From NCBI GenBank assembly GCA_964187785.1, contig OZ076409.1, positions 41,604,001 through 41,668,000 on the forward strand: a stretch of DNA of 64,000 bases, written 5' to 3'. Origin of the DNA: Amphiscolops sp. MND2022 (Eukaryota). Numbering within the stretch: position 1 is the stretch's first letter; each line of letters opens with the position of its first letter. The translations under genes were made by a program, and so were the position numbers. The notes under the pieces are model-generated. The model ran no database searches. It saw nothing but the letters and a program-made list of their open reading frames with translations, and had not been told where the DNA came from. This document shows, in pieces, positions 5,068 to 63,680 of the stretch.

Positions 5068-5091
5068 ATTCATACCCTGATTCTTGTTCAG

Positions 5092-20400: not shown

Positions 20401-23400
20401 CAATCTCACTCTGAGTGGTCCACTTTTCTTACAATTTTTGTTCATCTTTCATATTTGTTCATCTTCCATCTTCGACCCAGCCGGAGAGCGTGGGTTCGAT
20501 TCTCGCACTAAACCATAAATTTTTTAATGCTTCCAAAAGTACAGGTGAAACCAAAAGGTCCCCCCTTTGGGTTTTTTTCGGCACTATGCGACTTTTTTCG
20601 AAAATTTTCGAAATTTATCAAAGGGTACCCCCTTGAAGTTTTTTGAAGTTTTCGGTTTGTAGAAAACGTTGAATGAGCCTGAATGGCCTCTTTTTGAGTT
20701 TTTCGGCATTGTGCGACCTAAAAAATACTTTTTTTCGAAAAAAAAATCAAAATTTTTTTTTGAAAAAAAAATTTTCCAAATTTTTCCAATAGTTGTTCCT
20801 TGAATATTTTTGAGCCTAAGATATGGCGCCGACTTGGGACGTTCCCGTCTTGTTTTTTCTTCAGAATACAATCCTCACACTGATCGGTCCACTTTTTAGA
20901 AACAATGCTGAAACCACCTAAGGCGCCCAGTCCGGCAAAGGGGCCAAGGCAAACTTAGTGCAAAGGGTCCCCCTTTCATTTTTTACTTTTTCAAGGTAAC
21001 ATACAAAACCGGACAGGACTGAAAGAGTCCCCCCTTTCGATTTTTTTCGGCACTGTGCGACTTTTTTTTCGAAAAATTTTTTGTCGCCAAAGGACGCCCC
21101 CCTTTTATTTTTTTACTTTTTAACGTAACCTACAAAACCGGATGAGACCAAAGGGTCCCCCCTTTCAATTTTTTTCGGCGCTATGAGACTTTTTCGAAAT
21201 TTTTTTTGTCTCCAAAGGGTCCCCCTTTCAATTTTTTTTTGATATTTTGCAACTGAAAGGATGTTGAAAAAGCCCAAAGCCCCCCTTCTACATTTTCCGT
21301 CACTATGAGACTGTTCAAAATAATCATTTTTTTCGACAACTTTTTAATGTCTCCAAAGGGTCCCCCTTCAATTTTTTTGATATTTTGCAACAAACTAGAT
21401 TTTCAAAAAGCCCAAAGGGTCCCCCTTTTACAATTTTTGACATTGTGAGATTTTTCGAAATGATCATTTTTTGTCATAAAAATTGTTTTTTTTCAGTTTT
21501 TAAAAATTTTGCGCTTTTTGAGCCTTAGATATAGCGCCGACTTTAGACGTTCCCGTCTTGTTTCAATTTCTGATTCCGTTTGCCAGCAGCCCATATTCTC
21601 TAGCACAGTTTTTATTCAACAGTTCATTGATACCTAGATTGGTTTGAATGGCCCAAGCATTAATTAAAGTGAATTTGTCTCCAAAACTGAGAAAAAATAA
21701 TTTTTGCACAAAAAATGTTCACTTTTTTCTAAATTTCCGTTTTTGGTAAAATCCAGTTTTTTTCGAAACAATTTTCACCCATAGCAAAAACCAACCCCAT
21801 ACACGTGCACAACATGTTCTTACGCAACAAATCCCAATAATATTCAGTTGTTACTACAAGCTACGAAGTGCGGAACTGCCGCGAAGCGGCGGTACCGGAA
21901 AAAGAAACCAAAATTCTGAAGGAAGGAGCGCGCGGCGACAGGGGCTCACCAGACTAAAATGAAAGCCCAATGCCAGACCTTTCAAACACGCTATAGTTCG
22001 TTTCTCTGGTACGCGTAGTTGTTGAGATATTAATGATTTAAAATTTTTAATCCGAATTTTTGAAAACTTTTTTGCAAAAACGCTCAGGTCACTTATGGTT
22101 AAAGCTGAAACTGAGTTGTTTTTAGAGAAATTAATGGTAAAAATAGCAACCACGGTGACTCAAAAAACGCGATTTCCTCGCCGACCAAAGTGGAAGAGTC
22201 GGCGGCGCTCACTTCAGAAGAAGCCCATGCTTCAAGTACCTCGACTGGCGAAAGGAGTTCAAAGATGGGCATTTCTGACTCATTGTTCGGTGCTAACTCT
22301 GCATCCACAAGCACTGCTTTTTCATCTGTCAACGAAAGTGGTGGCTCTTCTAATGATACTTCAAAACTGTTCATGTTTGGACAGAACTTACAAGACAGAG
22401 TAGTTGTGCCAACTGGTGCTGAATCCTCAAAAGTCGAATCATCTGAGTCCGCAAAAGTGGCCGAGACAAGTTCCGCTGAACCCAAGAAGACGGTTGCTGG
22501 AGGAGACTTGAAGCCGACACCTGTTTTTGCTGGCTCCTCAAATGAGTCTCCTCTCATTTTCAAGGAAGCTGGCGAAAAGACTGAAAGAAAGGGAGACAAT
22601 GTTTTCTCAACTACAGTGCAGATGCAAACTGGGGAAGAAAATGAAATAACTGTTCTTCAGGTAATTCTTTCGGTCTCCTATTCAGTCTCTGAATCATAAC
22701 ACATAAATCGCGATTAAAAGTTACCCATGTTTCAGTTTGGAATTGAACTAAGGATTCTTTTCTAGCAAGCAGTTCAATGAAATGGAAGATTTTTTTTCAG
22801 TTTGTATTTTCCTATTTTATCGGAGCGATTGCTAGAAAAGAATCCTTAGTTCAATTCTAGTTTTCTTACTTTGAAATTTGAATATTGCGGAAATCAAGTT
22901 TCTAAAACTATTCAATTTGCTGACGTTTAACTTCCTCAATGGTGTTCTTGATTTATTGGAATCGGAAGAATTAATGAGAAACAAAAATGCCCTGAAAGTT
23001 ATCGAGTTCCAAGTTTTGCCTCAAAGTTGAGATTCTTCCGGTTTCAGATACAAGCCAGACTTTTCCAATATGATTCCTCCGTAAAGAATTGGAGAGAGCG
23101 AGGAAGGGGTGTTTTGAGGCTGAACGAATCCAAATTCGCAGGCAACGGAAAAGCGAATGATGTTCAGAATTCCGCTAGAATACGTTAGTGGCATCTTTCT
23201 TCTGACAGAACACAGTGAAGAGCGCTCGACGGTGGAAAATGAAAGATTATTTCACTTCTTATTGGGAAAGAAAAATAGCCATTATTTTTGCAGACTTATA
23301 TGATTGTTTCTGTGGGAGTGGGAAATGCATAATTTCAGTTGTTCAAATAGTTGAAAACAAACTATCAATGACCGACCTAGCTTCGAAGCTACGTTTTCAA

Positions 23401-26400
23401 CCCTTTATTTGAAGGTTTTTCACCAATTAGAATGGAAAGGTGTTTAATTTGAAACAACTAACTATTTCAAAATAGAGCCTGAGTAAGTTTCCCAAATATC
23501 ATTGTTTTTGCAACGATCCATTAGTGAATCAGTTAACAAAACTGGCTTTTTAACGACTTCTTCAAAACTGTTTTAGGGGATATCTCTTTTTATTAAATGC
23601 AAAAATAGGGACTGATATCGGCTAATAACACAACTCCGCATGGTTACAGTTTTTCATACTAGCAGCGATTTGTACTAAATATCAAAAACCACTTTAACCT
23701 TTTTAACAAAAAAAAACTAAAATTCGAAGTGACAACGACGAAGGACCAAAATATTTTTGATGAAAACAACACGTGACTGTTTCACTGTTTTCGAATTGTT
23801 GATGGTTCTTATTCGGGAGCAGATTTGATTGTAACTGCTTTTGACAACCTAATGCTATTTTGGAGGACGGTCCTTGCTCTTGGCTTCTTCAAATCAACAG
23901 GCGGCATTTCTTGGAATGGAAGTGGCTCGTAATTTTTAGTGTTTTAGTGATGCGAACACATGCTACGTATCAACTGGTGCTCAACACTAAATTATTTGCC
24001 GATCAGTTGTTGGAGAAGGCGTCTGACAAAGCCGTCAAACTGAGCTGCTTCAATGAGGAGAATACAGGAATGGCTCTCTACACTATCAAGGTTCATTTCA
24101 TCATCGCTCCACGAGTGTGAATTAGTTTTATAAAACATCTCAAAAATGAATTTTTTGGTTAAATATGCTTATTTCAAAGTTGCCTGATTACGGAAAAACC
24201 TGGAGCAAAAGTTACTCCTCTGATTTCTACCAAAATTACAGTGAAATATTTTGAAACCGAATGAAGATTTCAAATGACATCTCACATGGTGGTGACGGAG
24301 TATAACCGCACGATAATAATGCCGAAAAAATTTATAGCAGAACCGAAATAAATTTTTGGTTGTGATTGTCGCTCCATTCGATAGTGAGGTTTGAATGATG
24401 AAACTATTATGTAACTTTGTAACCTCTCAATTATGTAACTTTCTAACCGGTCGGATTAAATAAATACAAATTCTTTTATAATACCATTCGGTCACAATAT
24501 CGAGCGGCTAAAGTCATGACTACCTCACCGTGGTAATTTGAGGAATTTTGAAATGCTTCCATTTTTATTACGCAATAAATCAAAACCTCCAATGATCATT
24601 TTTTGAGTTTGAAATATATAATTCCGTTGAAACAAATTCTTACAATTTTGTAATTGGTGTCTCATTCCAAAAATTTTTGAGATTCGCTTGGTTAGACGTG
24701 ACTTTTGTGATTAACACAACATGTATGTTATAGTCTATACGATAGCCTGACGATTATATTCTAACCACATTTTATGAGCGAAGACCTTCGAACGTTAATG
24801 CGAACCGTGGGTGAGATGCAGTGAATTGTCGTGTATAAACTTTTTCGTGTATCGTGTATTTCGTGTATTTGCAAAAACCGTTACGTGTATTTGTGTATTT
24901 TAAAAAATCGTGTATTTTCGTGTATCTTCGTGTATTTTTTCTGAAAAATAAAACTTCGAAAGTTTGAATTTCAATTTACTCATTATAAAGAGCAATTTGA
25001 ACCAAAATTTCCAAGTTTTTTGGTGACATACGGTTTCTTCTATTTGCGCAACGGATGTTACATTGGGAAAATAGCCTTTTGACTGCTCCTGAGCTTGCAG
25101 AAATGGCTAAGACTTCCTGGATCAATTTTTTGAACAATACTGGCACATTTTTTGCGTCCCAAATGGAAATGGATCAACCGAAACGGGACCAGAGTTCAAA
25201 TATTGAGACATCAATGTCTTCCAATCGCTAGCGCGAGATGAACTCATAACGGCAAAATCCGATAATTTGCGTAATTTTGAATGTGTATGAGGCACGTCAA
25301 TAACATCAGGGGTATCTGTATTAGATTCTACATTTTGATCCAAAAACTGGAAAAACTGGATAAATAGTATCAAAGATCATAGAATAAAGACTGAATGGTA
25401 CCCAAAAAAGCACGGAAAAACTTACATTCGACAATAGTGATAGGCAAGGCTCGTTTCGCGCAAAGATCTTTTGCGATTGATTTCTCAACTGCAGATTGTT
25501 TTGAGTAAACAGGCTTATCTGTGGTAAGAGAATTTTCTGTTACTTTGATCGTGCCTTGTTTTGTAGGCCCAATGACATTTCTGGTTTGTTTCAGATGTAA
25601 ATCAGGTTCTTTCGGATGTAGCTGTTGATAGTGCTTTAATAAATTTCCCTTCGTATTTTTGCTATACTGACAGCTTTTTTTGCAAATTCGACAAATTGCC
25701 GGTTTACCTTTCGTAAATTGCTCAGGTATTATAAATAGAGAATCGTAATTTGCACGAGCCATTTATCTGAAAAAGAGATTAAGTTAATATTCATAGACCG
25801 TATAAGGTGTGAAAGGCTATGGCGTTAATATTAATGACGCGTGAATGCCGTTTAAATGAATTGCATCCTGCACAAATTTCAGCCAATGAAAATTCAGTTA
25901 TGTAATTCATACAATTCAGTTCATACGCTCAACTGCCACATTCACATGCTCAATTTAATTATCGTGTATATTTCAAAAAATCGTGTATCGTGTAGGTTCG
26001 TGTAATAAAGAAGCAAAAAATCGTGTATCGTGTACAATTCACTGGTGAGATTTGAAAGTTTTCATTATTTCTGCGATAGCATGAATAATATAGAATCCGT
26101 AAGGAGTTGTTTCAACCGAGTATCAGACGAATATGTTCGTTAACCGGGTACCTACTAAACAAGATGCAAACATTTTCTTCGGCAGTGCGTGCATATAAGC
26201 GTGAGATTTAAATTTCTCAAGCAGTCAACGACACTTAAGTAGCGATGAAGCGACTGAGTGTTAATTATGCATTCGTACACCGAATTAATTGAGATGATGC
26301 GAATGAGTGTTAATTATTCGTTCGCCGAGAGCCATTCAGAGTAATAATGGTTCGTCCACGGAATTCAGCGACATAAAAATTAGGTTCGTAGCATGAGTGT

Positions 26401-29400
26401 ATTTATGAAAGTTTTCGAACTTTTCGGAAAGACGTGCCTGAAAGGAAAGGTTTCCCGAAGAGCCAAAATTACAAAAAAGTTTTCAATTTTCGACAATTTT
26501 ATGCAAGTTTTGTTTAACTTGATTATGCAAACGAGTTCAGTGACCAAAATATTCAACCCTTCAGCATTCTTTTTCAATTGGAGAAGAAAAAGGCTTCGAA
26601 TGGACCAAACATTCGTATAACGTTTCCGTTGGCATAAATTTGTTGGCTAAAATCGAGCCCTCAAAAATATGTTGATGTAAAATAGTTCCGGGTAGAATTT
26701 ATCCCGGTGCTCAGCGGACATCTTGTGGATGCTTTTTGCGAGTAACTTTTTAGTCGGCGCAGTTTCGTTCTCTATCTGTCACTCTAGTGCCTTTCTTTAT
26801 AAATTTCAAAATTTTCACTAAATGGCTCCATGGCAAAGTAGTTTGAGCGTTGAATCTAAGGGACCCACATTCGAATCCCGTTCAGGGTCAAAAAAACTTC
26901 CCAATCGAACTATAGAAAATGCGTTTTCGGATAAAGCGTATGCAGTGATTTAATCTGGATAAAACGTCAAAAAGGTCTGAAAATCCGTTTGTTTTGCGTC
27001 TTCCCGGACGGAAATTGGGGGGTTCGAGTCTAGGCAACGCCGAAAATTTCATCTTTCAAATTGAATTAAGCTTTCTCCTAATCTCTAGAAGACATTTAAA
27101 GGCTCCTCATTAGGGTCAACTGATTATTTCATTTTTTCATGGAACTAAAAGACAAAAGGGTTGGTTTATGCTTCGGCATTGTTCGGCTTTTAGTGATTTT
27201 TTTCCAAAGGCTTGCCTCTTTGGTTTTCTTTTCTTTGGTTTCAAAATGTAAAACAAAAAGACTGAAACCCAAACCAGTGACCTGCAATTCTATATTTATT
27301 TTCAGGTTGACAGATTAGAATTTAAACTGGCACATTTTTTGCGTCCCAAATGGAAATGGATCAACCGAAACGGGACCAGAGTTCAAATATTGAGACATCA
27401 ATGTCTTCCAATCGCTAGCGCGAGATGAACTCATAACGGCAAAATCCGATAATTTGCGTAATTTTGAATGTGTATGAGGCACGTCAATAACATCAGGGGT
27501 ATCTGTATTAGATTCTACATTTTGATCCAAAAACTGGAAAAACTGGATAAATAGTATCAAAGATCATAGAATAAAGACTGAATGGTACCCAAAAAAGCAC
27601 GGAAAAACTTACATTCGACAATAGTGATAGGCAAGGCTCGTTTCGCGCAAAGATCTTTTGCGATTGATTTCTCAACTGCAGATTGTTTTGAGTAAACAGG
27701 CTTATCTGTGGTAAGAGAATTTTCTGTTACTTTGATCGTGCCTTGTTTTGTAGGCCCAATGACATTTCTGGTTTGTTTCAGATGTAAATCAGGTTCTTTC
27801 GGATGTAGCTGTTGATAGTGCTTTAATAAATTTCCCTTCGTATTTTTGCTATACTGACAGCTTTTTTTGCAAATTCGACAAATTGCCGGTTTACCTTTCG
27901 TAAATTGCTCAGGTATTATAAATAGAGAATCGTAATTTGCACGAGCCATTTATCTGAAAAAGAGATTAAGTTAATATTCATAGACCGTATAAGGTGTGAA
28001 AGGCTATGGCGTTAATATTAATGACGCGTGAATGCCGTTTAAATGAATTGCATCCTAGGTTCGTAGCATGAGTGTATTTATGAAAGTTTTCGAACTTTTC
28101 GGAAAGACGTGCCTGAAAGGAAAGGTTTCCCGAAGAGCCAAAATTACAAAAAAGTTTTCGATTTTCGACAATTTATGCAAGTTTTGTTTAACTTGATTAT
28201 GCAAACGAGTTCAGTGACCAAAATATTCAACCCTTCAGCATTCTTTTTCAATTGGAGAAGAAAAAAGCTTCGAATGGACCAAACATTCGTATAACGTTTC
28301 CGTTGGCATAAATTTGTTGGCTAAAATCGAGCCCTCAAAAATATGTTGATGTAAAATAGTTCCGGGTAGAATTTATCCCGGTGCTCAGCGGACATCTTGT
28401 CGATGCTTTTTGCGAGTAACTTTTTAGTCGGCGCAGTTTCGTTCTCTATCTGTCACTCTAGTGCCTTTCTTTATAAATTTCAAAATTTTCACTAAATGGC
28501 TCCATGGCAAAGTAGTTTGAGCGTTGAATCTAAGGGACCCACATTCGAATCCCGTTCAGGGTCAAAAAAACTTCCCAATCGAACTATAGAAAATGCGTTT
28601 TCGGATAAAGCGTATGCAGTGATTTAATCCGGATAAAACGTCAAAAAGGTCTGAAAATCCGTTTGTTTTGCGTCTTCCCGGACGGAAATTGGGGGGTTCG
28701 AGTCTAGGCAACGCCGAAAATTTCATCTTTCAAATTGAATTAAGCTTTCTCCTAATCTCTAGAAGACATTTAAAGGCTCCTCATTAGGGCCAACTGATTA
28801 TTTCAATTTTTCATGGAACTAAAAGACAAAAGGGTTGGTTTATGCTTCGGCATTGTTCGGCTTTTAGTGATTTTTTTCCAAAGGCTTGCCTCTTTGGTTT
28901 TCTTTTCTTTGGTTTCAAAATGTAAAACAAAAAGACTGAAACCCAAACCAGTGACCTGCAATTCTATATTTATTTTCAGGTTGACAGATTAGAATTTAAA
29001 CTGGCACATTTTTTGCGTCCCAAATGGAAATGGATCAACCGAAACGGGACCAGAGTTCAAATATTGAGACATCAATGTCTTCCAATCGCTAGCGCGAGAT
29101 GAACTCATAACGGCAAAATCCGATAATTTGCGTAATTTTGAATGTGTATGAGGCACGTCAATAACATCAGGGGTATCTGTATTAGATTCTACATTTTGAT
29201 CCAAAAACTGGAAAAACTGGATAAATAGTATCAAAGATCATAGAATAAAGACTGAATGGTACCCAAAAAAGCACGGAAAAACTTACATTCGACAATAGTG
29301 ATAGGCAAGGCTCGTTTCGCGCAAAGATCTTTTGCGATTGATTTCTCAACTGCAGATTGTTTTGAGTAAACAGGCTTATCTGTGGTAAGAGAATTTTCTG

Positions 29401-32400
29401 TTACTTTGATCGTGCCTTGTTTTGTAGGCCCAATGACATTTCTGGTTTGTTTCAGATGTAAATCAAGTCCTTTCGGATGTAGCTGTTGATAGCGCTTTAA
29501 TAATTTTCCCTTCGTATTTTTGCTATACTAACAGCTTTTTTTGCAAATTCGACAAATTGCCGGTTTACCTTTCGTAAATTGCTCAGGTATTATAAATAAA
29601 GAATTGCAATTTGCACGAGCCATTTATCTGAAAAAGAGATTAAGTTAATATTTATAGACCGTATAAGGTGTGAAAGGCTATGGCGTTAATATTAATGACG
29701 CGTGAATGCCGTTTAAATGAATTGCATCCTGCACAAATTTCAGCCAATGAAAATTCAGTTATGTAATTCATACAATTCAGTTCATACGCTCAACTGCCAC
29801 ATTCACATGCTCAATTTAATTATCGTGTATATTTCAAAAAATCGTGTACCGTGTAGGTTCGTGTAATAAAGAAGCAAAAAATCGTGTATCGTGTACAATT
29901 CACTGGTGAGATGTGAAAGTTTTCATTATTTCTGCGATAGCATGAATAATATAGAATCCGTAAGGAGTTGTTTCAACCGAGTATCAGACGAATATGTTCG
30001 TTAACCGGGTACCTACTAAACAAGATGCAAACATTTTCTTCGGCAGTGCGTGCATATAAGCGTGAGATTTAAATTTCTCAAGCAGTCAACGACACTTAAG
30101 GAGCGATGAAGCGACTGAGTGTTAATTATGCATTCGTACACCGAATTAATTGAGATGATGCGAATGAGTGTTAATTATTCGTTCGCCGAGAGCCATTCAG
30201 AGTAATAATGGTTCGTCCACGGAATTCAGCGACATAAAAATTAGGTTCGTAGCATGAGTGTATTTATGAAAGTTTTCGAACTTTTCGGAAAGACGTGCCT
30301 GAAAGGAAAGGTTTCCTGAAGAGCCAAAATTACAAAAAAGTTTTCGATTTTCGACAATTTTATGCAAGTTTTGTTTAACTTGATTATGCAAACAAGTTCA
30401 GCGACCAAAATATTCAACCCTTCAGCATTCTTTTTCAATTGGAGAAGAAAAAAGCTTCGAATGGACCAAACATTCGTATAACGTTTCCGTTGGCATAAAT
30501 TTGTTGGCTAAAATCGAGCCCTCAAAAATATGTTGATGTAAAATAGTTCCGGGTAGAAATTATCCCGGTGCTCAGCGGACATCTTGTCGATGCTTTTTGC
30601 GAGTAACTTTTTAGTCGGCGCAGTTTCGTTCTCTATCTGTCACTCTAGTGCCTTTCTTTATAAATTTCAAAATTTTCACTAAATGGCTCCATGGCAAAGT
30701 AGTTTGAGCGTTGAATCTAAGGGACCCACATTCGAATCCCGTTCAGGGTCAAAAAAAACTTCCCAATCGAACTATAGAAAATGCGTTTTCGGATAAAGCG
30801 TATGCAGTGATTTAATCCGGATAAAACGTCAAAAAGGTCTGAAAATCCGTTTGTTTTGCGTCTTCCCGGACGGAAATTGGGGGGTTCGAGTCTAGGCAAC
30901 GCCGAAAATTTCATCTTTCAAATTGAATTAAGCTTTCTCCTAATCTCTAGAAGACATTTAAAGGCTCCTCATTAGGGCCAACTGATTATTTCAATTTTTC
31001 ATGGAACTAAAAGACGAAAGGGTTGGTTTATGCTTCGGCATTGTTCGGCTTTTAGTGATTTTTTTCCAAAGGCTTGCCTCTTTGGTTTTCTTTTCTTTGG
31101 TTTCAAAATGTAAAACAAAAAGACTGAAACCCAAACCAGTGACCTGCAATTCTATATTTATTTTCAGGTTGACAGATTAGAATTTAAACTTTGTTCACTT
31201 TTAGGGAATCAAGAGCTTTATTTTTGAGTCATGAAAAGCAGTTAATTCGAACAGATTTCCAGTCAAAATGCATGAACACGATTCTAATTGAAATTAACTT
31301 CCTCTTATGGAAAAAGATTTCACTGTTAACCTGGACACAGTTTGTAGAAAAAAACTGGTTTTTTGATAATTTCAGTTGGGAAAGGCTTTTTGCGTCCCTT
31401 TTGTAAATTTTTGGGAGATTTTTTTTCATAAAAACAACCTTTTAGCATAATTCAAAGACGGCGGCTTTTGAGCCTTTAGCTGGGCGCCGACTTAAGACGT
31501 CCCCGTCTTGTTTTTAAGTTAGAATTGAACTATTCGCGTGATTTGCCTGCCTTTTTAAATTATTTACAAGTGTTACTCTAACCTTTGAATAAATGAGAGA
31601 TGACGTTTTAACGTGAATTTGATTTCCAGATGTAAAAATGCTACATTTACTTCAGTTTTTAGAGATATTCAATTGTTTAAATTCCTTTTCTAAAATGTTG
31701 CGATCTCCAATGTGAATCAAAAAGGTCCTTTCGAGTTATTTGATGTGCTTAAAAAGTTGAATTGCCCTTTATCGCGAAGCTCTCACGCTTTCATGACTGC
31801 GCAAGTTTAATATTTTTCCCGTCCGATGAATTTGAGGATCATCTTTTCTTTTGTGACTTGAAGTTCGTAGTGACGCCAAAATTTAATGGATTGTTTTTTA
31901 AAGCAAATTTCGGTTTACCATTTTTTCTTTGAATTTTGTTCAAACAGTAGCCTTTTCCAAAACCCTTCTATCTAAAAATGTTCTAAAAAAGATTAGCTAC
32001 TGGCATGACTTGGGACAAAAATTTCCTACTTCAAGAAATTTTCATGTTTTGAACATATTGAAAAAATCTTAGCCATTTGTTAGAATCAATGCATTAAATT
32101 TGGCGGTAACGGACTTAATGACGTTTCAGGGATCTGCTGCGGACATCGATGCCTTGTTTGTTCATCTGAAGGAAAGAATTGACAGATTGAAGCAAAAGTC
32201 TACTCAGGAAAATGAGCCGAGCAGTGACGAGGACCAAACACGGTTGGAAAACAAAAAACAACCAGAAAGAAGTGCGACTGTGGACGAAAAGAAAGAGGAA
32301 CCGCAAACCAATTCATCAACCAACTTGGGTACAGACGAAACTTCCAGTGGCGCTGATAGTTACTACAGATCAACGACCCCCTCGGGCCATTCTCTAGATG

Positions 32401-32456: not shown

Positions 32457-33269
32457 GAGTAGCGAGAAGCGAATCGTTGTTGAATCTTTTGATGTACCAG
32501 CAGTCGGAGTTTGTTTATCATCCCTGAAGTTGTTCTTGTTAAGTTGCTACCATGTTTGTGACACCGACTGTATGATGTAGAAGTTACTGTTTTCTTTGTA
32601 GAAGATGGTCAGTTGAATTGATAATGCATCTGATGGAATACTCTTGTCTTTTATTGCTCAAGAAGGTTGTGTATTTATTATTTCTGCTTTAGCAGGAATA
32701 TTATTGAAATCTCAAAATGTCTACTTTTTTCAGTACAATTCTTGGCACGATTCTGTTCGGCAGTGTCTATAAGCGTAAGAATTAAATTTCTCAAGCTGCC
32801 GACGACAATTCAATTCTTGTGCGATGGAACGAGCGAGTGGTAATTATGCATTCGTAAGCTGACGTCATTGAGATGAAGCTAGCGAATGTTCGTAATTGTG
32901 CTTTCGTTGCGCCGAGTTATTGAGATGAAGCAAATGAGTGTTAATTATACTTTCGCGGAGAGTTTCGCCTGCATTCAAATAGATATTTGCTTTAGTCCGA
33001 GATTTAGTACTATTACTACTAAAAGACTGAATTGATTCTGTTATACGGTACACATACCGAACCGATCCTTTCGGTTGACACTGTCAATCACAAAACTTTG
33101 GATCATTCTCATCATAGACATTTATTTATACATATGCTTACATATTGGTAAACAACATACACTATGGTACCAAAAAGCTAAGTACAGCTGAATTTTTTGA
33201 ATTTTTTTCAAGTCAAAAAAAAACATTTGTGAACAATTTCAATCAGTTACCGGAAGTTGTGCTTCGAAA

Positions 33270-34803
33270 ATGGTTAAACCGCTTGATTCATTTTTGGTTT
33301 GCAAAATTGTTACTCTTCGCGAGATTGGGTTATCTTACAATCAAATCAAAGAGAAATTGGGTTTGAAGTCACGATCAACAGCACAGTCAGCTTACAAGCG
33401 CTTTTTGAAAACCAGTTCTTATTCTCCAAAAAAACCACCAGGAAGACCGGAAAAACTTAGCAAAAAAGACAAAAGATTAATTATAAGAAGCGTCAAAAAC
33501 GATCCCAAAACTACATTACAAAGAATCAGGGTAAAGTATAATTCTTTTGCAACCTCAAAAAGTGTCTCAAGATCTACAATTCGGCGAGTTCTGAAGAAGT
33601 ATGGGCTAGTTTCTAGAGTGGCGGCTAAAAAATTTCAGCTCAATAAAAAACAACGAACAACGAGGAAAAAATGGTGCTTGCGAATGTCCAAGAAGCCGCT
33701 CGGTTTTTTGTCCAGCCTTGCACTCACTGAAAAAAGTACATAGTAAAAAATTTTCAATTTTGGGAAGGAAAATCTTTCACTCGTATTCAGGTTTTTTTCC
33801 ATCAAATTTGCTAACTGGAGTCGGCGAGCAACAGGCGCTGTAGCGTAGTGGTTAATTCCAATGGGTGGCATCCCGAAGACACGGGTTCGATTCCGCGTAC
33901 GGCCCAAATATTTTACGATCGTCAAACATACACAGAGTCCGCAAATAGACGAAAATTTTCAGCAAAAAAATCGGAAATTTTCAAAAAAAATCTCAAAGTT
34001 TCGGAATTTTCCTAATTTTTTTATCGCAACACCAAACGGCCCCTCCTACAAACTTTTCGGCACTGTGAGACAATTTTTTCTCAACACCAAAGGGTCTCCC
34101 TTCGAAATTTTTCGGCACTGTGAGACAAAAAAATCAAAAATTTAGAAAAAAAATCGCAGATTTTTGTAGTACTCTACTTTTGCTATTCTTTTTCTCATGA
34201 AGTTTTACATAATAATCTTGGCTGGATGGAAAAGGATTCTGGGAAAATGTGGTTTTCACTGATGAAACTCGTGTGCGTCTGAACAGTGACGGTATTGTAA
34301 GAGTTTTCCGAGAAAAAGGATCGCGTTTCCACTCAAAAAATATTCAAGGGCAGAACACTGATAAACGCTCGCTTATGTTCTGGGGAGCTATTCGATCGGA
34401 TGGCAGGAAGATGCTAATTAGATGCCCGGCAACACTCAATAGCAGCGGCTATGTCGAAATTCTTGAAAAGTATGACAGAAATTTGCACCTACCGGACATT
34501 GTTTTCCAGCACGATAATGCCCCAATTCACAGAAGCAGAGAGGTTTCCAACTATCTAAGTGAAAAGAAGTGGGATGTGCTCGAATGGCCTCCGTATAGTC
34601 CTGATTTGAACCCCATGGAAAATATTTGGGCTATACTGAAGAAATCCCTGCAAGGACAAACTCTAACGTGGGAAAGTTTGGAAGAAACAGTGATTGATAT
34701 TTGGAACAATATCAGTCCCGAAATTATCCGAAATATGTACGCATCTTATGAGAGTCGCCTCGTAAAAACTATAAAAAACGATGGAAATATGATTGGTTAT
34801 TAG
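33270..34803 (+). CDS. Tc1 transposase, two segments 33270-33702 + 34235-34803 (333 aa when joined)
   Basis: HTH, PGRP hinge, VFTDE, FWGAI, FQHDNAP, WPPYSPDLNPME with 34 residues between the second D and E. Removing the GT..AG segment 33703-34234 gives ..KKPLG|FWENVVFTDE in frame. Confidence 0.9.
33834..33906 (+). ncRNA. tRNA-like sequence inside the Tc1 intervening segment
   Basis: A box TAGCGTAGTGG (33841), B box GGTTCGATTCC (33884); imperfect stems. Confidence 0.55.
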
Positions 34804-35111
34804 TGTGTTTGTCTCCTAATTTGATTATATTTTTTTCTGTTTAAATTTCAAATTTTCCTCTCAGTTTTTAAAAATTCAACAGGTGTACGTAGCTTTCTGG
34901 TACCATAGTGTATGTTACTTTGCCTTATATCGAAATTGCATCAGTTAGATACTTTTCGTAGCTAGAGAATAGATCGTTTCACTGACAGTATTTATGTTCT
35001 GGAAAGATACTTTTAAATAAACTTCTTTGTTTTCTTATTCAACCAAGAATATAGAACATGACGCAGTCAGCAAATTGAAATTACCAAGAATATTTCAACA
35101 AAACAAAGAAA

Positions 35112-40286: not shown

Positions 40287-40849
40287 TGTTGATGAATTAA
40301 AATTGTTACAGGTATCACCGAGAGATGGAACAGTCGAAAGGAGCCGCCGAAACCACTGACGAAGCCAGCCGACTTCATTCGAGAAAACACCCCAACACCG
40401 GGAACCTCGAAACAGTAACCGAAAGGAACTTAGAAGGGAGGAAATGTTATACGGTACACATACCGAACCGATCCTTTCGGTTGACACTGTCAATCACAAA
40501 ACTTTAGATCATTCTCATCATAGACATTTATTTATACATATGCTTACATATTGGTAAACAACATGTGTTACTTTGCCTTATATCGAAATTGCATCAGTTA
40601 GATACTTTTCGTAGCTAGAGAATAGATCGTTTCACTGACAGTATTTATAATCTGAAAAGATACTTTTAAATAAACTTATTTGTTTTCTTATTCAACCAAG
40701 AATATAGAACAGATTCTAGTCAAGACTGAATTGATTGAGTCAGAAATTGATTCTAGAAAGAAATACTTGATGACATTTACATGTACAGATTTTTTAAACA
40801 ACAGATTTAAAGGCGGTATAAACTGGTACAGTGCTTAATCGTGCGCTAA

Positions 40850-45845: not shown

Positions 45846-46142
45846 GGACAATCATCGTAAATTTCTGTGCACAAAAATTGGTTCTCCATCAGTGAAGTTA
45901 TCTGAGAAAATAACAAACATGGCTAACAAAAATAAAATGGATGGCTTTAAATTAGGAAGAAAAAACACATTGAAACGACTTTAGAATTGAGAAACCTCGA
46001 ATCATCGCACCAGCTGCTGAATTTGATTCATGGCAGGTTCATGCGTTTTATTCACCAAATCGAGAACGTATTCTGAGGATGCTAGTTTAATTAATAAAAT
46101 TGCATTTCATTGTTATCTTTGTTCAGATCTCCAATCTTATTA

Positions 46143-46612
46143 ATAACAAGACGGCAACGTCTAAAGTCGGCGTTATATCTAATTCTCAAAAAGCCCAGTT
46201 TTTAAAATATGAAAAACTCCTGTTTTCGAACCTCCGCCTCCTTCTTAATAAACCGCAATATACTTCGGATATAACGTCAAAAGTTCGGATATAGCGCTTT
46301 ACTCAGGATATTAGGAGGATGAATTTCAATAAAATCGAAGGAGGGACCCTTTGGAGACAAAAGAATACGAAAAAGTCGAACAGTGCCGAAAAAAATAAAG
46401 TGAGCTATAGTCTCGTCCGATTTTGTATTTTACGTTAAATATGGAATAAATGAAAGGGGGAATCTTTGCACTAGTTTACATGCGTCTCCGCTTGCCTATC
46501 CAGTAATTTCGTAGTTCTGTAAAAAGTGTCCACTACGCATACATTCTGTTATCTGACGAAAAAAATAGAAAAAAAATACCACAGTTTTAGTTGCACTCAA
46601 TTTCTACTAAAA
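46143..46612 (-). mobile_element. Diverged family A Helentron-like copy
   Basis: AACAAGACGGCAACGTCTAAAGTCGGCG end and internal modules shared with 9145-9638. Confidence 0.6.
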
Positions 46613-47042: not shown

Positions 47043-50000
47043 TTTCAACTCATAATTTGATTTTTGTCGCTTCTGAATGAAAGAATCATGAACAAGTTGT
47101 GAGATGTACAGTTAATCTGGGAAAGTTTCATTGATACTCATACGTTTTGTTGTTTTGTTTGTCAGATCAAATTAATTCAAATTGCAATTGTTATGCCATA
47201 TTACAACTGAAACGATACGAATCAATAATAAAAGAGATATTCAATCAACACCATTTTTCTCTGGGCTCCTGCTAAGTACAACCTTCAAAAGGTTTTATGC
47301 CCAAAAAACATCCCTCCCGTCAAACTGATTGCTGAAAAAAGGAAAAAAGCTTTCGTTATGGAAAAAATAATTCAGGAAAATATCGTTCTCGGACTTTTCA
47401 GATTTTGGAAGACTTCGCAACTCTCCAGTTCGTGGGACCTTTGTGACAACGACACCCTCTTTCAGAAAAAAACTTTATAGATTAGAACTCTGAACTACTG
47501 TATTAAAAAAGTCAAATATTCATGAGGTGAAAAGAAATAAAAATGTTTTGTTAGAGATATTTTGCGAGATATTGATGAACCTTGACCCAAATTAGAATAA
47601 AAAACATCATTGCCTGAAGTTTTAACAGAAAAAAACTGTTGTCGGCTAATTTCATTGTTCATTATCATTGAGACACAATTTGGACGGGATCTTAATGCGA
47701 AGCGATCGAACTTAGATAAAATAACTTGAAATCCATTATATTCTTTCCTTGAAGTGCTTACTTAGGACTATGCGCGCTTGATTGTTGTGATTGTCTGCCG
47801 CTGTTTTGACTGGTTTCTCTTGTTGTCTGTTTGACTTTCTGTCTGTTTGTGTGTTTGTTCGAAGATTGTTTGATTTTGCTTGAGTGTTGAAAACAACTTG
47901 TTTGTATGATGGCTGAAAAGTTCGATAGGTGACTGGTGATTGTAAGTGAAGACATGTTGTGTTTCGTGGAAAAGAAGAAGACTTCGTTTATTTTCAAGAA
48001 CAGTTGGAGGCGAGGATGTATAAGATGAAGCTGTTGTAAGTGTTGGAAATGAGTGTGACTGTGAGGATTATAGAACAGACGTTAAAAGAGCGAAGGGTGT
48101 CATGAAGCTAAAGCGAAGGCCAAAGATCGAGCTGAGAACTTAATGGAGGATAGGAAGAGGATGATATGATGTGAAACGGTACAGGCGTTGGACAAGAAGA
48201 ATTTCCTGTACTTGAGACATTACAAGGGAGATGGTACTAGAGCGTGGCAGGTTCTCTGAGAAGTACAGACGTTTGAAAGGCCTAGATTGCAGTTCTTGAT
48301 AGAAAAGTCAACTAATTTGCGGATAGAGTATTCAGAAACTGTTGGTGAATATTTGACAAGAGCTGAAGAATATCAGTACGAGTTGAAGCAAGTAGGAGAA
48401 GAAGTAACGGAGAAGATTTTAACATCATTGATAATGAAAGGAATGCCGGAGGAGTTCGATATCTATGTTACACTTGTGAAGTTCAGCAAAGAGAAAAAAG
48501 GATTTGACGAGCTGAAAAAGGGCCTAGTAAATTTTGAAAGCGACAGAAGAAACGAATCAAAGTACAACCATTCCGAATCGGCCCTTTATTCCGGTGCGAG
48601 GCAGTTTGTTGTTGAATGCTTCAAGTGCCATCAAGTTGGTCACAAAATGTCTGACTGTAAACGGGAAGAAAATAGGAGAGGCCCGACTAGAAGTGTAATA
48701 TGTTACAAAGGTCAAGGAAAGGGACATAATGCAAAAGACTGAAAAGTAGATGAGAAAAAGAACCTAGTAGATCAGGGACAAATCAAATTCAAAACTCAAG
48801 AAAAACGATTCCAGTGTAATTAGTGTAAGAGAGCCTGTCACACTGAAGAGTTTTGTTTTGAGAAGAAATGTCGAGAAAGAGCGAACTTTGTTAAGAACAA
48901 GGACCAAATTGCAAGATCGAACAGAGGAGGAACTCAGTTTGTTCACTTATGATGTTATGGACTTGGAAGATCAGCGAAGATTTGTGATTGATTCTGGTTG
49001 TAGTAATTACAAGATCAAGACAGGGATTTGTTCACTTCCCTGGATGAGACACGGCGGTGAATATGAGTGTGCCAATAAATCGAGCTCCAAAATAGAGGGT
49101 ATTGGTACAGTTGAATTCTTCGCCCAACAGAGGGATGGACGGAAAGCGAAGATCACGCTACAAGATGCTCTTTTTACTCCTGAAAATGGCTAAAACTTGC
49201 TATCATTAGCCCCAGTTAAACAGTCAGTTGCAACGTTGCATTTTGCCGATACAGATGAACTGGTAACCAAGAACGGAACACAGTTTTAATTGGAACCAAG
49301 CAAAAATCTGTTCATCTGGCGAATGGTAACTAATCATGATCTAGAATGCAACAAAGTGAAAATGTCAGATGAACACTGTTTTGCCACAAGTCTACTAGAA
49401 CAATGGCATGAAAGGCTAGGACATTTCAACTTTCTAGATGTAAAACGAATTCGCCATCATGTAGACGGGATGCTTTTGGAAGGAAAGGCAGTCGAGGAGG
49501 TTTGTGAGACATGTGAAACGAACAAACCGAAACCCAGAGTTGTTCCTGAAGATCTCACGACCAGGTCCACAGAAGTAATAGAAATAATACCCATCGATAA
49601 TCTAGGTCCGATTGCTGAGGAGGCGATCGATGGGCACAAGTATGCAATTGGATTTGCAGATACTTTCGCGCTCTCTATCAGTGTGTACTTTATGAGGAGT
49701 AGGGAGGATTGTTTGGAGAAATTCCAAAATTTTCGCGCGGACATCGGGAAACCAAGATTGATAGTTTTGGATGGAGCAACGGAGTTTGTCGCTCCAGACT
49801 TCGAATAGTTTTGCTGAAAGGAAGGAATAAGACGTGAGACAGACATCGGCACCGTACAACCCAGAGGAAAATAGAAAAATTGAAAGAACTTGGGGAACTG
49901 TCATGACAAGGTGCATGTTGGATCAGTCTGGTTTTAGCAAAGAGTATTGGTCATTTGCCTTGAAGTATGGTTTTTATGTGAAAAACTACTGTTTTCATTC

Positions 50001-52089
50001 AGGATGACACCGTATGAGAAATTGTTTGGAGTCAAACCTGATAATTCATTTATCCGCACGTTTGGGTGTAAAGTTTATGCCTTTGTGGAGAAACCGTACA
50101 GGAAGAATATGGACAAAACTGCGAAGAGATGTCTTCCTAGGGTTTTCAAGAGAATCCAAAACTTACGTAGTTGGAATTAAGGATAGGGGAAAATTGAAAA
50201 TCATTAGAACGAGGATTGTAAAGATCAATGAAAAAGAATGTATTTTGCCAGTAATCAAGTTAACGATATTGCCGGACCGTCAATAGATGTCTATCATGAG
50301 TGAAATCTTAACCAAGATAATGCAACCAAGAGTGTATAATGATGGTCAACTAAGCAATCCATTTTAGACACTCCTAATGAACACTCAACGTAATTGCAAC
50401 CAAGAAATAAAAGAAATAGCCGTACAGAGGAAGTTTTGAGCTACAGTACAGAAACGGAAGAAACAATGATAATAAAGCAGGCTATACCAAACTCGACACA
50501 AGAGGCGTTACAGGAACAACACTGGCGGCAAGCGATGGAGGAGGGACTACACTTTTTGAATCAAAACAATGTTTGGACATTAGTTAGTCTACCTAAAGGT
50601 AAGAAAGCGAAAGGTAGTCGTTGGCATTTCACAGTCAAATATGGTCCTGATGGTGAAATCAAGAGGTACAAGGCAAGGTTCGTAGCCAAGGGATTCAGCC
50701 AGAGAGAAAGGGTGGAATAAAAAAAAACCTTCTCACCTACAGCTCGTCTTTCAACTGTGAGAGTTCTTTTATGTCTTGTAACTCAGAATACCAGGTAAGT
50801 GAAACAACTAGACTTTAAAACAACGTATTTGAAAGCCAATATTGAGGAGGAAATCTACTTGAAGCAGCCATAAGGATTTGAAGTGTCGAGTAAACAAGAT
50901 GTGTTGGTTTGTAAATTACAAATGAGCTTGTATGGATTGAAGCAGTGCGGAAGAAACTGGTATTTCGCTTTGATGAAGTACATCGAAAGCAAAGATTTGT
51001 TGCATGAGTGCATGATTGTTGCTTGTTTGTGCGGATTGTTTATTGTGATTTCTCTCTGTTGTATGTGTGTGGGTGGATGACATCATTTACTGTGGTAAGA
51101 GTGATTCCTTTCTGAGTTCGATCAAGGAGAAAGTGATGAAAGTATTTCGAGTGAGTGACTTTTGTGAGCTAAGTTGGTTTTTAGGCATGAAGATTGATAA
51201 AAAGGGTGGTTCAATTAGTATCAGTCGAAAAAAGAACATCACGAACATACTTGAAAAGTTTGGAATGAGTGATTTTAAGGTCACAGTAACACCCATGTTA
51301 GAAAAACAGAAGTTGTGCAAAGTATCTGTCCTGTGATTGGTGAACAACACTGGATAGCGGCTAAGCATGTTCTTCGGTACCTCAAAGGAACTGCGAAAGA
51401 CGGACTTGTGTATAGTAGAAGTCCCGAAGGCATTTGTTTGGAAGGATATTCTGATGCTGATTGGGCAGGTAACGAAGATCATAGAAAGAGTGCGTCTGGC
51501 TACTGTTTTAGATTGAGTGATAAGTCTGCGTGTGTAAGTTGGTCAAGTAAAGTTCAGAGTAGTGTGGCGACAGTGAGCATGTTTGTTTGTATGTTGACGA
51601 TCAAGCCAGCATAGCGCTGAATAAGCACGCGAAGCATCATGGAAAAACAAAACATTTTGCTAACAAACTACAATTTATATGTGATTTGTGCAAAAACAAA
51701 ATAAGAAAATAAAACTCGTTTACTTGCAGACGAAAAAACAATCAGCAGATTTGTTGAAGAAACATTTGGGAAGAATAATAACCAAAACATGTAGATGTTT
51801 TTTTACTGGGATGCCAAACGAAAAAAGCAGAAGCTCCGAATGGCGGGGGTTTCAACTCATGATTTGATTTTCGTCGCTTCTGAATGAAAGAATCATGATC
51901 AAATTGTGAAATGTATGTTTAATCTGGGAAAGTTTTTTTGATGCTCATATGTTTTGTTTGTCAGATCAAATAAAGTCAAATTGCAATGGTTATGCCATAT
52001 TACAACTGAAACGATGCGAATCAATAAAGAAAAAGATTTTCAATCAACCCCATTTTTCTCTGGACTGCTGCCAATTACAACCTTCAAAA
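47043..52089 (+). mobile_element. Decayed Ty1/Copia LTR retrotransposon
   Basis: Direct repeats ~47043-47290 and ~51850-52089; PBS-like GGTTTTATGCCCA; G-rich PPT; order gag (CFKCHQVGHKMSDC) - PR (IDSGCS) - IN (WHERLGH, CETC) - RT (YKARFVAKGFSQ, SLYGLKQ, WVDD) - RH (YSDADWAG); many stops and frameshifts. Confidence 0.92.
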
Positions 52090-52364
52090 TTTTATAAAAG
52101 AAGACTATATTGCTGATTTTTTTAAACAAATCAGCGTCAGCGGAATGAAAGTTATTCTACGAGAAGAACCGGGGTTGCACCATGAAAAAGTATTGCGCAT
52201 CATACCAGTAGAACGGTTCCGATGATAATAATAGCCAACTGATTAGAAACTGGTGTCCAGATTGGACCTACAAGTTTTCTAACAGGAAAAACCTTTGTTG
52301 GAAAATCCGTCGGCAATCCTTTCAACTGAAAGATAGTCCACAGTCATGTCAATTTTTGTTGAAG

Positions 52365-52858
52365 GAAGCCGGGAACGGCCCAAGTCGGCTTCATATCTAA
52401 GGCTCGAAAATATTCAAGGACCAACAATTGGAAAACTTGGATTTTTTTTCAATAAAAGTATTTGGTAAAAAAAAGTCGCATGTTGCCGAAAAACCCAAAA
52501 AGATACCCTTTAGTCTTTTTAAACGTTTTTTACAAATTGAAAAATTCAAAAAATTCAAGGGGGTACCCTCTGATAGAATTCAAAATTTTCGGAAAAAATG
52601 TCGCATAGTGCCGAAAAAAACCGCAAAGGGGGGACCCTTTGGTCTCCCTTCTACTTTTGGAAGCATTAAAACTTTGTGGTTTAGTGCGAGACTCGAACCC
52701 ACGCTCTCCTGTTTCTCATACGCCAGAAAATCCGGGTTTACCTCTCGGCCAAGAAGTTGAACAATTGAACAAAAAGAGTGGACCGATTGCGTTGAACTGA
52801 CGAAAAAAAATGGCCACTGTAAGAGTCGTGCTTTTTCTTCTAAAACGCCGGCTAAAAA
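52365..52858 (-). mobile_element. Family A Helentron-like copy with tRNA-like remnant
   Basis: AAGCCGGGAACGGCCCAAGTCGGC ... ACGCCGGCTAAAAA; similar to 20319-20854. Confidence 0.7.
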
Positions 52859-54266
52859 TGAAACGCATACCCATCATTGAGGACAAAAAATAAGGGTTCA
52901 AAAGTTTAAAAAGTTGGTCAATGTCACAAAGTGAAATTTGCATCTGAAAATCAAATGGCACTAGGTTTCGCTTGGCTTCGCCTAAAAAACTCAGTAAGCT
53001 TCATCCAATTATTTAATTTGTGAATTTGAATTTTTCATCTTCATACTTGATTTTATCCCACAAAAAGGCGTTCTTACTGAAAGATACTTCCGTCTCGTAT
53101 TCAATTACTTCGGGAATAGGACTAGACTCAAAATACTACAATTAAAGGTGAATGCTAATTCAGCGGAAAAAATGGTTCATTGGTTTTGAAGAAATTATGA
53201 ACTTTTTCGATAATTAGGCTTTCCAATTATGTGATTCCCTTTTCACATTGTTTCTTACCTCATAATGGCGCATTCAGTTCTTTGGATATTCAGTATTGTC
53301 AGCAGAATATGTACCCCGCCTACTACCCCGCCATAGCGACTTTTCGGGACAGCTGGCGGATATTTACTAGGCACTAGGGGTGAAATTTTGCTGTATCAAT
53401 TCAGTTGTTGAGTTTATAGTCAAATTCATTGCTTCTATCCTAGGACAATGCATGATATCGACGAGTATGTCTTACTGTCCGATAACGAGCTCCGTTATCA
53501 CGCCTGGAGGTGTGTGAATTCAGTTGGTTTACAAAACTCATTGTTGCTTTGTGTCATTGTTGCTTTGTGCACAGTTCGTTTCGGATACAATCGCTCAGCA
53601 CTTTCATATCATGCTATAAATTTTATGGGCGGAGAGCTTTCTCATGTTTTTCTTGAGGTTAAATACCCGCAGACAAAAGTTTCAATTGATTGTTCGAAAC
53701 ATGGAACCCTGAGAGTATCTTTGAAACTGGTTTTTTTGTTTCAATTATAGATTATAGATTCACAGTTGCCGCCAGTTAGCTCTTCGAATGATTCGTTCAT
53801 CCTCATTAACCTTTTTGATGATATAAAAACCTCAATAGCAACGATTTTCATATAAATACTCCAAATACCTGTAGATCAGTTTGATAATTAAAATTTTCTT
53901 CAGCTTTTGATCTTGTCTAGTTTTGCTGATTTACAGCAAAAACATAGTTTTTGAAACCGTGTACATACATCTGTTGGTTGGATTGAAAGACTACCTTATA
54001 CGAAAGTGTTTCAAAATCGTTTTCCAGCGCTTTTTCGAAAGATCTTCCAGTTTTTTGCATTCAAATACCAGAAAGTTGGAAATGAAAAACTTGAAGATAT
54101 TGATTGCATGCTCAAACAGCGTTTTGCAATTTTGAAATATCGACTTTTTTTCAATTCTTACTTAAGTCAATTGACTATGCCCCTTGCCAACAGGTGACAA
54201 TTGGTAACTTTAAGACAACAAGACAATTTGATAATTCCTATCTTGAGTGTGCTTTTGCCATTGGAA

Positions 54267-61979: not shown

Positions 61980-63680
61980 CACTATGGTATCAAAAAGCGA
62001 CGTACAGCTGAAAATCAAATCTTATTCAGTTTGTGAAGAACTTTTCATTTTCATTCTCAACCGGAAGTGAAATCAATCACTCTTGATTTAAACATTGTTG
62101 AAAATGGTCAAACCATTGGATTCATACGTTGTTTGCAAAATCGTTACACTTCGGGAAAGGGGTTTATCAAAGAGATTAAAGAAAAGTTGGGCCTTAAATC
62201 TCGATCGACAGCTCAAACAGCTTATCAGCGTTTTTGAGAACGAACTCTTATGTGGCGAAAAAACCTCCAGGCCGGCCAGAAAAGCTCAGCAAAAAAGAGC
62301 GAACACTAATATTTTGAAGAGTGGAAAAGACCCAAAAACAACATTAGAACGAGTAAGAGTACTGCAAATCTTTTTCAACGTCAACAACAAGACGTACAAT
62401 TCGAAGAATCCTGAAGAAGTACGGAATTGTTTCTAGAAAAGCCGCAAAAAAGATCAACTTGAACAAAACACAAAGACTGATCAGAAAACGTTGGTGCTCG
62501 AGTATGGTGAAAAAGCCCCTTGGTTTTTATCCAGCTTCAATTTTCCACCGAAAATGAGAAAAAGATTTGGAATTTTTTGAAAAAAAATAATTGAAAAAAA
62601 TCTCAAATTGCCGGAAAAACCAAAACGAAATAAAAAGTTTCATCAAATCAATCAATTTCACAGTGAACTGATAGCCCTTTTGATGGCCCTCCCAATGATA
62701 CAAAACGGGAAAATCGAACGTCGGCACTAACCTAAGGCTCAAAAAGCGCAAAGTTTAGAAAATCTGCTAGGGACTTTTATGAAAAGACAAAAAACTTCGA
62801 AACACCAAAATATCACAAAATTTGCAAGGGGACCTTTTAGTCACAATCGGTTTCGTATGTTACGTTAAAAAAGGAGAAATGAAAGGGGGGACCCTCTGCA
62901 CTACGTTAGATGCATTTTCGCTGCCCAGATTTGGGTGATACTGTAAACTTGAAGAATGTTGTTTTTTTTTCACTCGAAATTTTGCATTTTCGTTCTGAGT
63001 TTTGGTTGGATGGAAACTAGGCTTCTGGGAAAACGTCGTATTTTCAGACGAAACTCGTGTGCGCTTGAATATTGACGGCGTTGTGCGCGTGTTCAAGAAA
63101 ACTGGTCGTCGCTTTTGCCCCAAAAACACCCAAGAACTAAGCACAGGCAGAAGATCTATGATGTTTGAGGGGGCATCAGATCAGATGGCAGGAAAATGCT
63201 ACTTAAATGTCCAGCAACACTTAACAGTTACGGATAATTGGAGACTTTAAAGCAATACGATCGACATTTGATCATACAGGAATTGGTGTTCCAGCAAGAC
63301 AACGCCCCAGTACACAAAAGTGAAGTTGTTCGCAATTTTCTAGCCCGAAAGCAACGGGAGGTGCTGGATTGGCCAGCTTACAGTCCTGACCTGAATCCTT
63401 TTGAAAATCTTTGAGCCATTTAAAAAAAAATCTTGCGAGGTCAGATTGTTAGCTGGGAGATTTTAGAAGAAAAGGTTATGGAAGCGTGGAACAACATAAA
63501 CCCTGAAGTTGTTCGCAACTTGTACTTATCGTATGGGAATCGCCTGGTGAAGGTAATCAAAAACCATGGAAGTTTGACGGGATTTTGATTTATGATTTAT
63601 TTCAGCAAATGTTTCAAAAACTCTGTTCTGAGTTTTTTTTAAAAAAAAGTTGGTGTACGTAGCTTTTTGATACCATAGTG
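61980..63680 (+). mobile_element. Tc1 transposon related to 33160-34910, transposase pseudogenised
   Basis: TA|CACTATGGTATCAAAAAGCGACGTACA ... TGTACGTAGCTTTTTGATACCATAGTG|TA; MVKPLDSYVVCKIVTLRE, VFSDETRVRL, QQDNAP, WPAYSPDLNP with frameshifts and a stop; intervening segment 62523-63020. Confidence 0.92.

Follow-up and report, generated by a model that had tools for sequence, protein, structure and literature searches.

Introns within the transposase genes of Tc1/mariner elements have been described before. As set out in the available parts of the respective reports, the Minos element carries a 60-bp intron (PMC2874221), six Tc1/mariner families of Sclerotinia carry GT-AG introns of 124-276 nt (PMC4188875), and the TLEWI elements of bivalves are low-copy DD36E elements without terminal inverted repeats (TIRs) (10.1101/656579). 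In introners of the Micromonas pusilla type, according to the accessible text of two sources, the TIR adjoins a 3-nt duplication, with the donor coming from the element and the AG from the duplication (PMC11282704; 10.1101/2022.06.06.494994); excerpts of the former also describe nonconventional introns of euglenids, the ends of which are joined by a TIR-based stem (PMC11282704). For fish (AC)m-(GT)n introns, complementarity of the ends has been proposed, in the accessible portion of that work, to bridge the splice sites, replacing recognition of the pyrimidine tract by U2AF2 (PMC4691745). Searches of the open literature, which includes few subscription journals, yielded no account of the Tc1 clade considered here or of any Tc1 intron whose terminal stem is conserved, and the available part of PMC12130899 does not mention Tc1, acoel or Harbinger. 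For the interruption shared by the two Tc1 copies analysed here we propose, with a probability of about 0.6, that it arose a single time as an intron, the source being likely a short inverted-repeat transposon, that its removal would fall to the spliceosome, and that a stem formed by its ends is predicted to aid in the process.

The window, i.e. the whole 64-kb stretch of DNA that was analysed, comes from an animal, includes an EZH2-like gene among numerous repeats, and contains both copies (Table 1). From repeat motifs and a GC content near 37% (36.7% in PMC9911081) we tentatively suppose the animal to be an acoel flatworm; searches with an EZH2-like exon matched no named relative. Their DDE domain, N-terminal HTH, and TIRs with TA duplication are those of Tc1 (DD34E) elements; both have 27-bp terminal inverted repeats and TA flanks, with the TIRs of copy 2 matching at 26 of 27 positions. 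The two halves of copy 1 match Pfam DDE_3 (E 1e-20) and HTH_Tnp_Tc3_2 (E 7.7e-14), and the DD34E spacing, i.e. 34 residues between the second D and the E, was confirmed by a hand count in the copy 1 translation. As originally predicted, copy 2 is interrupted by 498 bp with GT..AG ends, the break falling in phase 1 within the Gly codon of KKPLG/FWEN, exactly as in copy 1, and the exons of the two copies do differ at many positions (69.5% and 67.5% identity). Removal of the insert from copy 1 gives a single open 333-aa DD34E frame in which the junction has the same spacing as in uninterrupted relatives; the reading frame of copy 2 is disrupted by several frameshifts and stops.

Table 1. Positions, in window coordinates, of the two interrupted Tc1 copies, their parts and an abundant dispersed repeat.
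Feature	Position	Strand	Remarks
Tc1 copy 2 (family B), decayed DD34E	61980..63680	+	27-bp TIRs, TA each side
Copy 2 exon 1 (DNA-binding part), frameshifted	62104..62522	+	
Copy 2 interruption, putative phase-1 GT..AG intron, 498 bp	62523..63020	+	
Copy 2 TTG, putative left copy of old TAG target duplication, synonymous change at Leu position	62520..62522	+	
Copy 2 left stem arm, 13 nt, donor GT included	62523..62535	+	
Copy 2 intron-nested piece (78-85%, diverged) of the window's abundant dispersed repeat	62696..62922	+	
Copy 2 right stem arm, 13 nt, purine-rich, at place of pyrimidine tract	63005..63017	+	
Copy 2 TAG acceptor, putative right copy of old target duplication	63018..63020	+	
Copy 2 exon 2 (DDE catalytic domain), decayed	63021..63589	+	
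Tc1 copy 1 (family A), intact, TA each side	33160..34910	+	within one LTR of gypsy-like element
Copy 1 exon 1, HTH_Tnp_Tc3_2 (Pfam)	33270..33702	+	run-on protein is P0162, on 71 contigs
Copy 1 interruption, putative GT..AG intron, 532 bp	33703..34234	+	
Copy 1 stem arms	33704-33717 and 34220-34233	+	
tRNA-like piece in copy 1 intron, weak	33835..33906	+	ARAGORN at lowered threshold only
Copy 1 piece of the dispersed repeat found in copy 2, opposite orientation	34032..34127	+	
Copy 1 exon 2 (DDE_3), open to stop	34235..34803	+	
Dispersed repeat	3925-5070, 9139-9644, 12069-12835, 14482-15077, 19609-21566, 46138-46492, 52359-52862		

The gypsy-like retrotransposon that hosts copy 1 (33039-35058 and 40445-40711) has LTRs that are 97-99% alike, which implies a recent insertion of copy 1; its other LTR has TG where the target of copy 1 has TA. 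Elsewhere in the window, tandem duplications of 0.7-2.2 kb at 25139-31190, 99-100% identical and including two identical zinc-finger-like ORFs, reflect either recent duplication or an assembly artefact, and decayed copia-like retrotransposon ORFs were recognised by eye at 48260-51614. A third Tc1-like fragment, on the minus strand at 1566-2147, is distant (27%) and decayed and has no insert at the corresponding site. The very abundant dispersed repeat contains short tandem units, has a start motif that its copies share, and resembles what we take to be a Helentron-type non-autonomous family.

Copies 1 and 2 belong to two multi-copy families, A and B, respectively. A query of exon 1 extended in frame to its stop codon matched 47 proteins, all on ENA contigs between 20 kb and 1.3 Mb long. 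Family A includes a 65-member cluster, and its exon 1 sequence identical to that in the window and its commonest exon 2 occur on 71 and 86 contigs, respectively, counts to which several assemblies or haplotypes may contribute; the clusters of family B have 177, 26, 7 and fewer members, such that the families comprise dozens to hundreds of variants. Among the 105 exon-1 proteins listed, with up to 15 members per cluster taken from the matches listed, 73 get as far as the break, and all 73 read into the insert and none into exon 2; the other 32 stop or shift earlier (29) or belong to an uninterrupted family (3). KKPLG and FWEN occur together in none of the 421 proteins collected, and the protein searches found no empty alleles, i.e. 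insert-free copies of A or B. The 96 matches of at least 330 aa (best 59%) include no full-length protein from either family, although such absence is weak evidence.

Searches with exon 2 revealed uninterrupted families on long ENA contigs, with the sequences KKPFSFWQN, KKSAEYWYS and KKGAGFWYS; at least three such families, apparently from the same assembly as judged by shared or similar contigs, have neither the insert nor the Leu-Gly target. Relatives on metagenome contigs comprise eight loci (best 56%; L003-L008 29-36%), two of which (L001 and L002) have no insert at the junction, the terminal repeat of the uninterrupted L001 being similar; no relatives were found in prokaryote genomes or viral contigs, and one sequencing run matched over no more than a 36-base AT-rich piece, a chance hit. 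In a tree of a hand-picked representative set of 20 exon-2 proteins, A and B fall together in a single clade (100/99) amid nine uninterrupted relatives and five outgroups, and a single change therefore suffices to explain the presence of the insert. Removal at the RNA level combined with vertical inheritance is very likely.

The divergence of the two families provides a clock. Copies 1 and 2 agree at 31 of 82 fourfold-degenerate sites, pS is 0.752, i.e. saturated, and dN is 0.22; purifying selection has acted on both exons from the divergence of A and B onwards. Since this selection followed the gain, we infer that the insert is removed for the elements to work. Saturation at synonymous sites also makes an unalignable interior the expected outcome. 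The prediction that the interiors do not align holds for the core (490 of 2000 controls as good) and fails for the flanks, where positions +16..+85 of the two introns align weakly (10 of 1000 shuffles and 13 of 2000 window segments as good) and positions -86..-17 more weakly still (65 of 1000 and 41 of 2000), as expected for one ancestral intron. Thus the proposal that position and terminal stem were kept while the interior turned over is retained, without the need for a special mode of turnover. The commonest dispersed repeat of the window has left pieces in both introns, oriented oppositely, and insertions have therefore added to the interior; peptide run-ons suggest that the piece in copy 2 is common to other B copies. 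In one B subfamily (P0221, P0375-P0384) an ATG-started frame of ~50-70 codons lies in the 3' part of the intron and continues in the reading frame of exon 2; at 62870-63020, where that subfamily is open, copy 2 is closed by stops. No tRNA was found in the window by ARAGORN at default settings, and no match to Rfam covariance models (group I/II introns, other RNAs) reached the gathering score there.

With respect to the boundaries, the cut registers that yield the same protein number 9 in A (-2..+6) and 12 in B (-5..+6), and in each set GT..AG is the sole canonical register, the removal of which restores the frame, as for a U2-type intron. No other in-frame GT or AG site is common to both copies, and family A, which is without two bases before the AG, has retained the AG despite this adjacent 2-nt indel. 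The Tc1 acceptors have 3 and 4 pyrimidines in 12, compared with 6-10 in 12 for five host introns; the right arm occupies the place of the host-like pyrimidine-rich 3' end, and a U-rich block weakly common to both Tc1 introns lies further upstream than the host tract, 25-50 nt before the AG. A pyrimidine-rich 3' end is a usual, though not a universal, feature of U2-type introns. Six host introns were mapped at 8516-23947, in the EZH2-like gene and a downstream gene (three supported by tblastn against EZH2 homologs and three by an open frame alone; five were scored), and four of the six donors begin with the weak GTT, which makes the Tc1 donor GTTTTT plausible and hints at relaxed 5' splice-site recognition in the host animal. 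Use of GT..AG by the spliceosome is predicted and appears likely.

The terminal arms are identical at 22 of 24 positions between the copies (binomial p ~6e-8 at 0.38, for positions picked after they had been seen), a conservation shown to exceed the neutral level by far. They form a predicted stem of 13-14 bp, and the original prediction that the ends pair using G-U is borne out by the duplex of the first and last 20 nt, at -19.6 (copy 1) and -18.0 kcal/mol (copy 2), which was equalled by none of 5000 equally spaced window pairs for either copy and by 2 of 2000 dinucleotide shuffles for each; the ends of the five host introns do not pair (-0.3 to -6.4). Each stem has three non-Watson-Crick pairs, all G-U on the sense strand, and for this reason the antisense duplex is weaker (-14.1 for copy 1, -9.4 for copy 2). 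Two of the G-U pairs are common to A and B, one distinguishes the families and one varies inside B, where the family arm states were read from peptides and DNA was that of copies 1 and 2. Of the two G-U changes proposed at the outset, that from A-U/G-U does separate the families, whereas the G-C to G-U change varies within B (in-frame run-ins AGWK 13/15, VGWK 1/15, as in copy 2, and DGWK 1/15), and the G-U evidence for structure is weaker than had been claimed. No pair is altered on both sides, i.e. there is no double compensatory change. The arm pair is absent elsewhere in the 64-kb window (loose matches 66 vs 58.8 expected), a longer inverted repeat inside the arms was not significant in three of four tests (96, 196 and 214 of 500; 9 of 500 in the other), and folding of the whole region is no better than that of shuffles (z +0.93, +0.70).

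Predicted folding differs between the copies. For copy 2 the stem forms in full context (0.88-1.0); for copy 1 it forms in the isolated intron only, its probability being 0.02 in exon context, where a predicted 9-bp hairpin of exon end and donor beats it by 3.7 kcal/mol. A weaker local hairpin is possible at the same place in copy 2. This hairpin of the Lys-Lys-Pro codons with the donor, seen in both families (33688-33711 and 62510-62528), is a possible switch against the long-range stem. The preference of copy 1, which is from the intact family, for the local donor hairpin, together with the lack of double compensatory change, counts against a role for the stem, and since the stem covers the U1-pairing bases of the donor it could hinder instead of help. 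Nonetheless, on balance we consider a working stem fairly probable.

The register of the arms bears on the origin of the insert. In family B the 13-nt arms run from the donor G to the C before TAG, and the exon ends in TTG, which would differ from TAG by a synonymous change within the Leu codon; a transposon bearing repeats of 13 bp and duplicating a 3-bp TAG would give exactly this layout. Family A has lost two bases, the register of stem to AG is 3 nt apart between the families, and a match of 3 bp can arise by chance. A 5-bp CTAGG duplication fits equally well, and its near-palindromic nature would account for the pairing across the boundaries, which had been pointed out in the original prediction and is found in copy 2 (5 bp) and not in copy 1, where G+1 faces G-1. 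The proposed old target site duplication thus fits as TAG (or CTAGG) in exact register with the inverted repeat, a putative trace of one old insertion, and not as a 9-bp duplication of the L-G-F codons, which was rejected because it would put the inverted repeat out of register by 4 nt. The 64-kb window contains neither a free copy of the presumed parent element nor any similar copy outside the two Tc1 elements. An origin of the insert from a transposon is slightly more probable than not.

Taken together, these observations are compatible with the following scheme. The same break is fixed in A and B and missing from their sister families, consistent with one gain before the split, and the selection on both exons since then would require removal of the insert. 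We envisage that an element with 13-bp inverted repeats entered CTA-GG with duplication of the 3-bp TAG, such that its first bases provided the GT and the duplication the AG, family A later dropping two bases before the AG. The arms may have been kept since the stem replaces the missing pyrimidine tract, or since it tunes the amount of transposase; it would bring two weak splice sites together, or act as a brake on splicing. Unspliced RNA would encode a DNA-binding-only protein (157 aa in A), which, speculatively, might act as a repressor. The middle, which consists of repeat pieces and an unalignable rest, would be a neutral spacer.

Other readings of the arms need to be weighed. The insert may be a spliceosomal intron that is old and otherwise ordinary, its conserved ends serving as splicing signals bound by proteins, with their complementarity a relic of origin and the stem unformed or irrelevant; we regard this as unlikely. 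The lack of double compensatory change, the alternative folding predicted for copy 1, the shared U-rich block and the purine-rich right arm, which is presumably enhancer-like, speak for it, but it does not readily explain why the arms are conserved over matching lengths, exactly at the pairing positions, with mismatches that are all sense-strand G-U. A tentative further reading, to which we give rather little weight, is that a successful transposon lineage has in its transposase gene the remnant of another transposon, of which just the paired ends are kept because SOS splicing by the host, or a stem-guided, U2AF-free spliceosome, cuts it out, the insert being a defence scar that is becoming an intron and an expression switch of the element.

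SOS splicing itself (AKAP17A, CAAP1, RTCB), which is triggered by inverted repeats and independent of the spliceosome, might remove the insert, alone or with the spliceosome; the stem would then be the removal signal, and the element would rely on host anti-transposon repair for its transposase. In the available text on the process, paired inverted repeats are needed, not their sequence or interior (PMC12779559), which fits the kept arms and free interior. Such repeats, with predicted pairing of 13-14 bp only, are present at the insert ends within an exon, both Tc1 splice sites are weak, cuts sliding over the registers given above keep the protein, and about one third of 598 near-arm cut pairs leave the frame open. 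However, the same text describes cuts that are imprecise and rarely GU-AG, and the repeats tested in Tc1 were of 54 nt, with no minimum length given there (PMC12779559). The conservation of GT..AG in A and B, a junction length equal to that of uninterrupted relatives, the yield of the exact protein from only 9 and 12 of the 598 cut pairs, and the conservation of arm sequence beyond pairing make SOS splicing an improbable route.

The original prediction had raised, as an alternative, a site-specific mobile element that targets this Tc1 codon, with separate entries in A and B and arms that are its DNA terminal repeats. The agreement in register between the inverted repeat and a short duplication, and the unrelated cores, would be compatible with such an element; however, A and B are one clade for which one gain is enough, so that site targeting is not needed, and no empty alleles were found. 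The uninterrupted families, apparently in the same assembly, lack both insert and target, and the arms are absent elsewhere in the window, imperfect with a strand bias, and adjoined by weakly shared sequence, such that this reading is very improbable. That the insert simply stays, with A and B moved by the transposase of uninterrupted sister families or with the halves acting as two proteins, scarcely merits credence, for although such sisters exist, L001 has a similar terminal repeat and one B subfamily has the ATG-started frame into exon 2, selection on both exons after the gain was strong, the frame of family A contains two stops and lacks an ATG before the first catalytic Asp, and the split codon is still Gly in A and B. 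Ribosomal bypass, a mirtron and DNA-level excision were dropped, given the conserved GT..AG, the 500-nt gap, the short stem and the lack of empty alleles.

Tc1 introns, introners and stem-bridged introns are each known; their combination, with a clock, is unusual. The saturated synonymous sites between A and B provide a built-in neutral control against which the terminal inverted repeat is nearly frozen, and the hundreds of family copies in one assembly would be a ready mutational series. The families thus offer natural tests of whether transposon terminal repeats are still needed after becoming an intron, and of whether inverted-repeat-triggered splicing is a route to stable spliceosomal introns.

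Compared with the described systems, as far as the available parts of the sources go, the A/B families share with Minos, the Sclerotinia families and TLEWI the GT..AG interruption of the transposase gene of an element that targets TA; unlike TLEWI, they are DD34E, multi-copy and have TIRs, and thus are not members of that group. The portions available on Minos, Sclerotinia and TLEWI describe no conserved terminal stem and no transposon-derived intron; the A/B intron is ~500 nt. Like SOS inserts, the A/B insert has paired inverted repeats at its ends, lies in a coding exon and has an interior of no apparent relevance (PMC12779559), whereas SOS inserts, in that partial account, have longer repeats and are removed imprecisely and rarely at GU-AG, the A/B arms being short and GT..AG conserved. 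The euglenid introns, from the excerpts available, have noncanonical ends, whereas those of A/B are GT..AG in a host with spliceosomal introns. In the fish (AC)m-(GT)n introns, as portrayed in the accessible text, simple repeats lie near the boundaries, whereas A/B have a unique 13-14 bp stem over the splice sites, with a predicted function. The proposed layout of TIR and duplication, with mRNA length unchanged, would in family B be that reported in the available text on Micromonas introners. Those introners, however, occur as numerous similar introns across numerous host-gene sites, whereas the A/B intron occupies one old site inside a transposon and has spread as its cargo, with interiors that no longer align and arms retained long after mobility.
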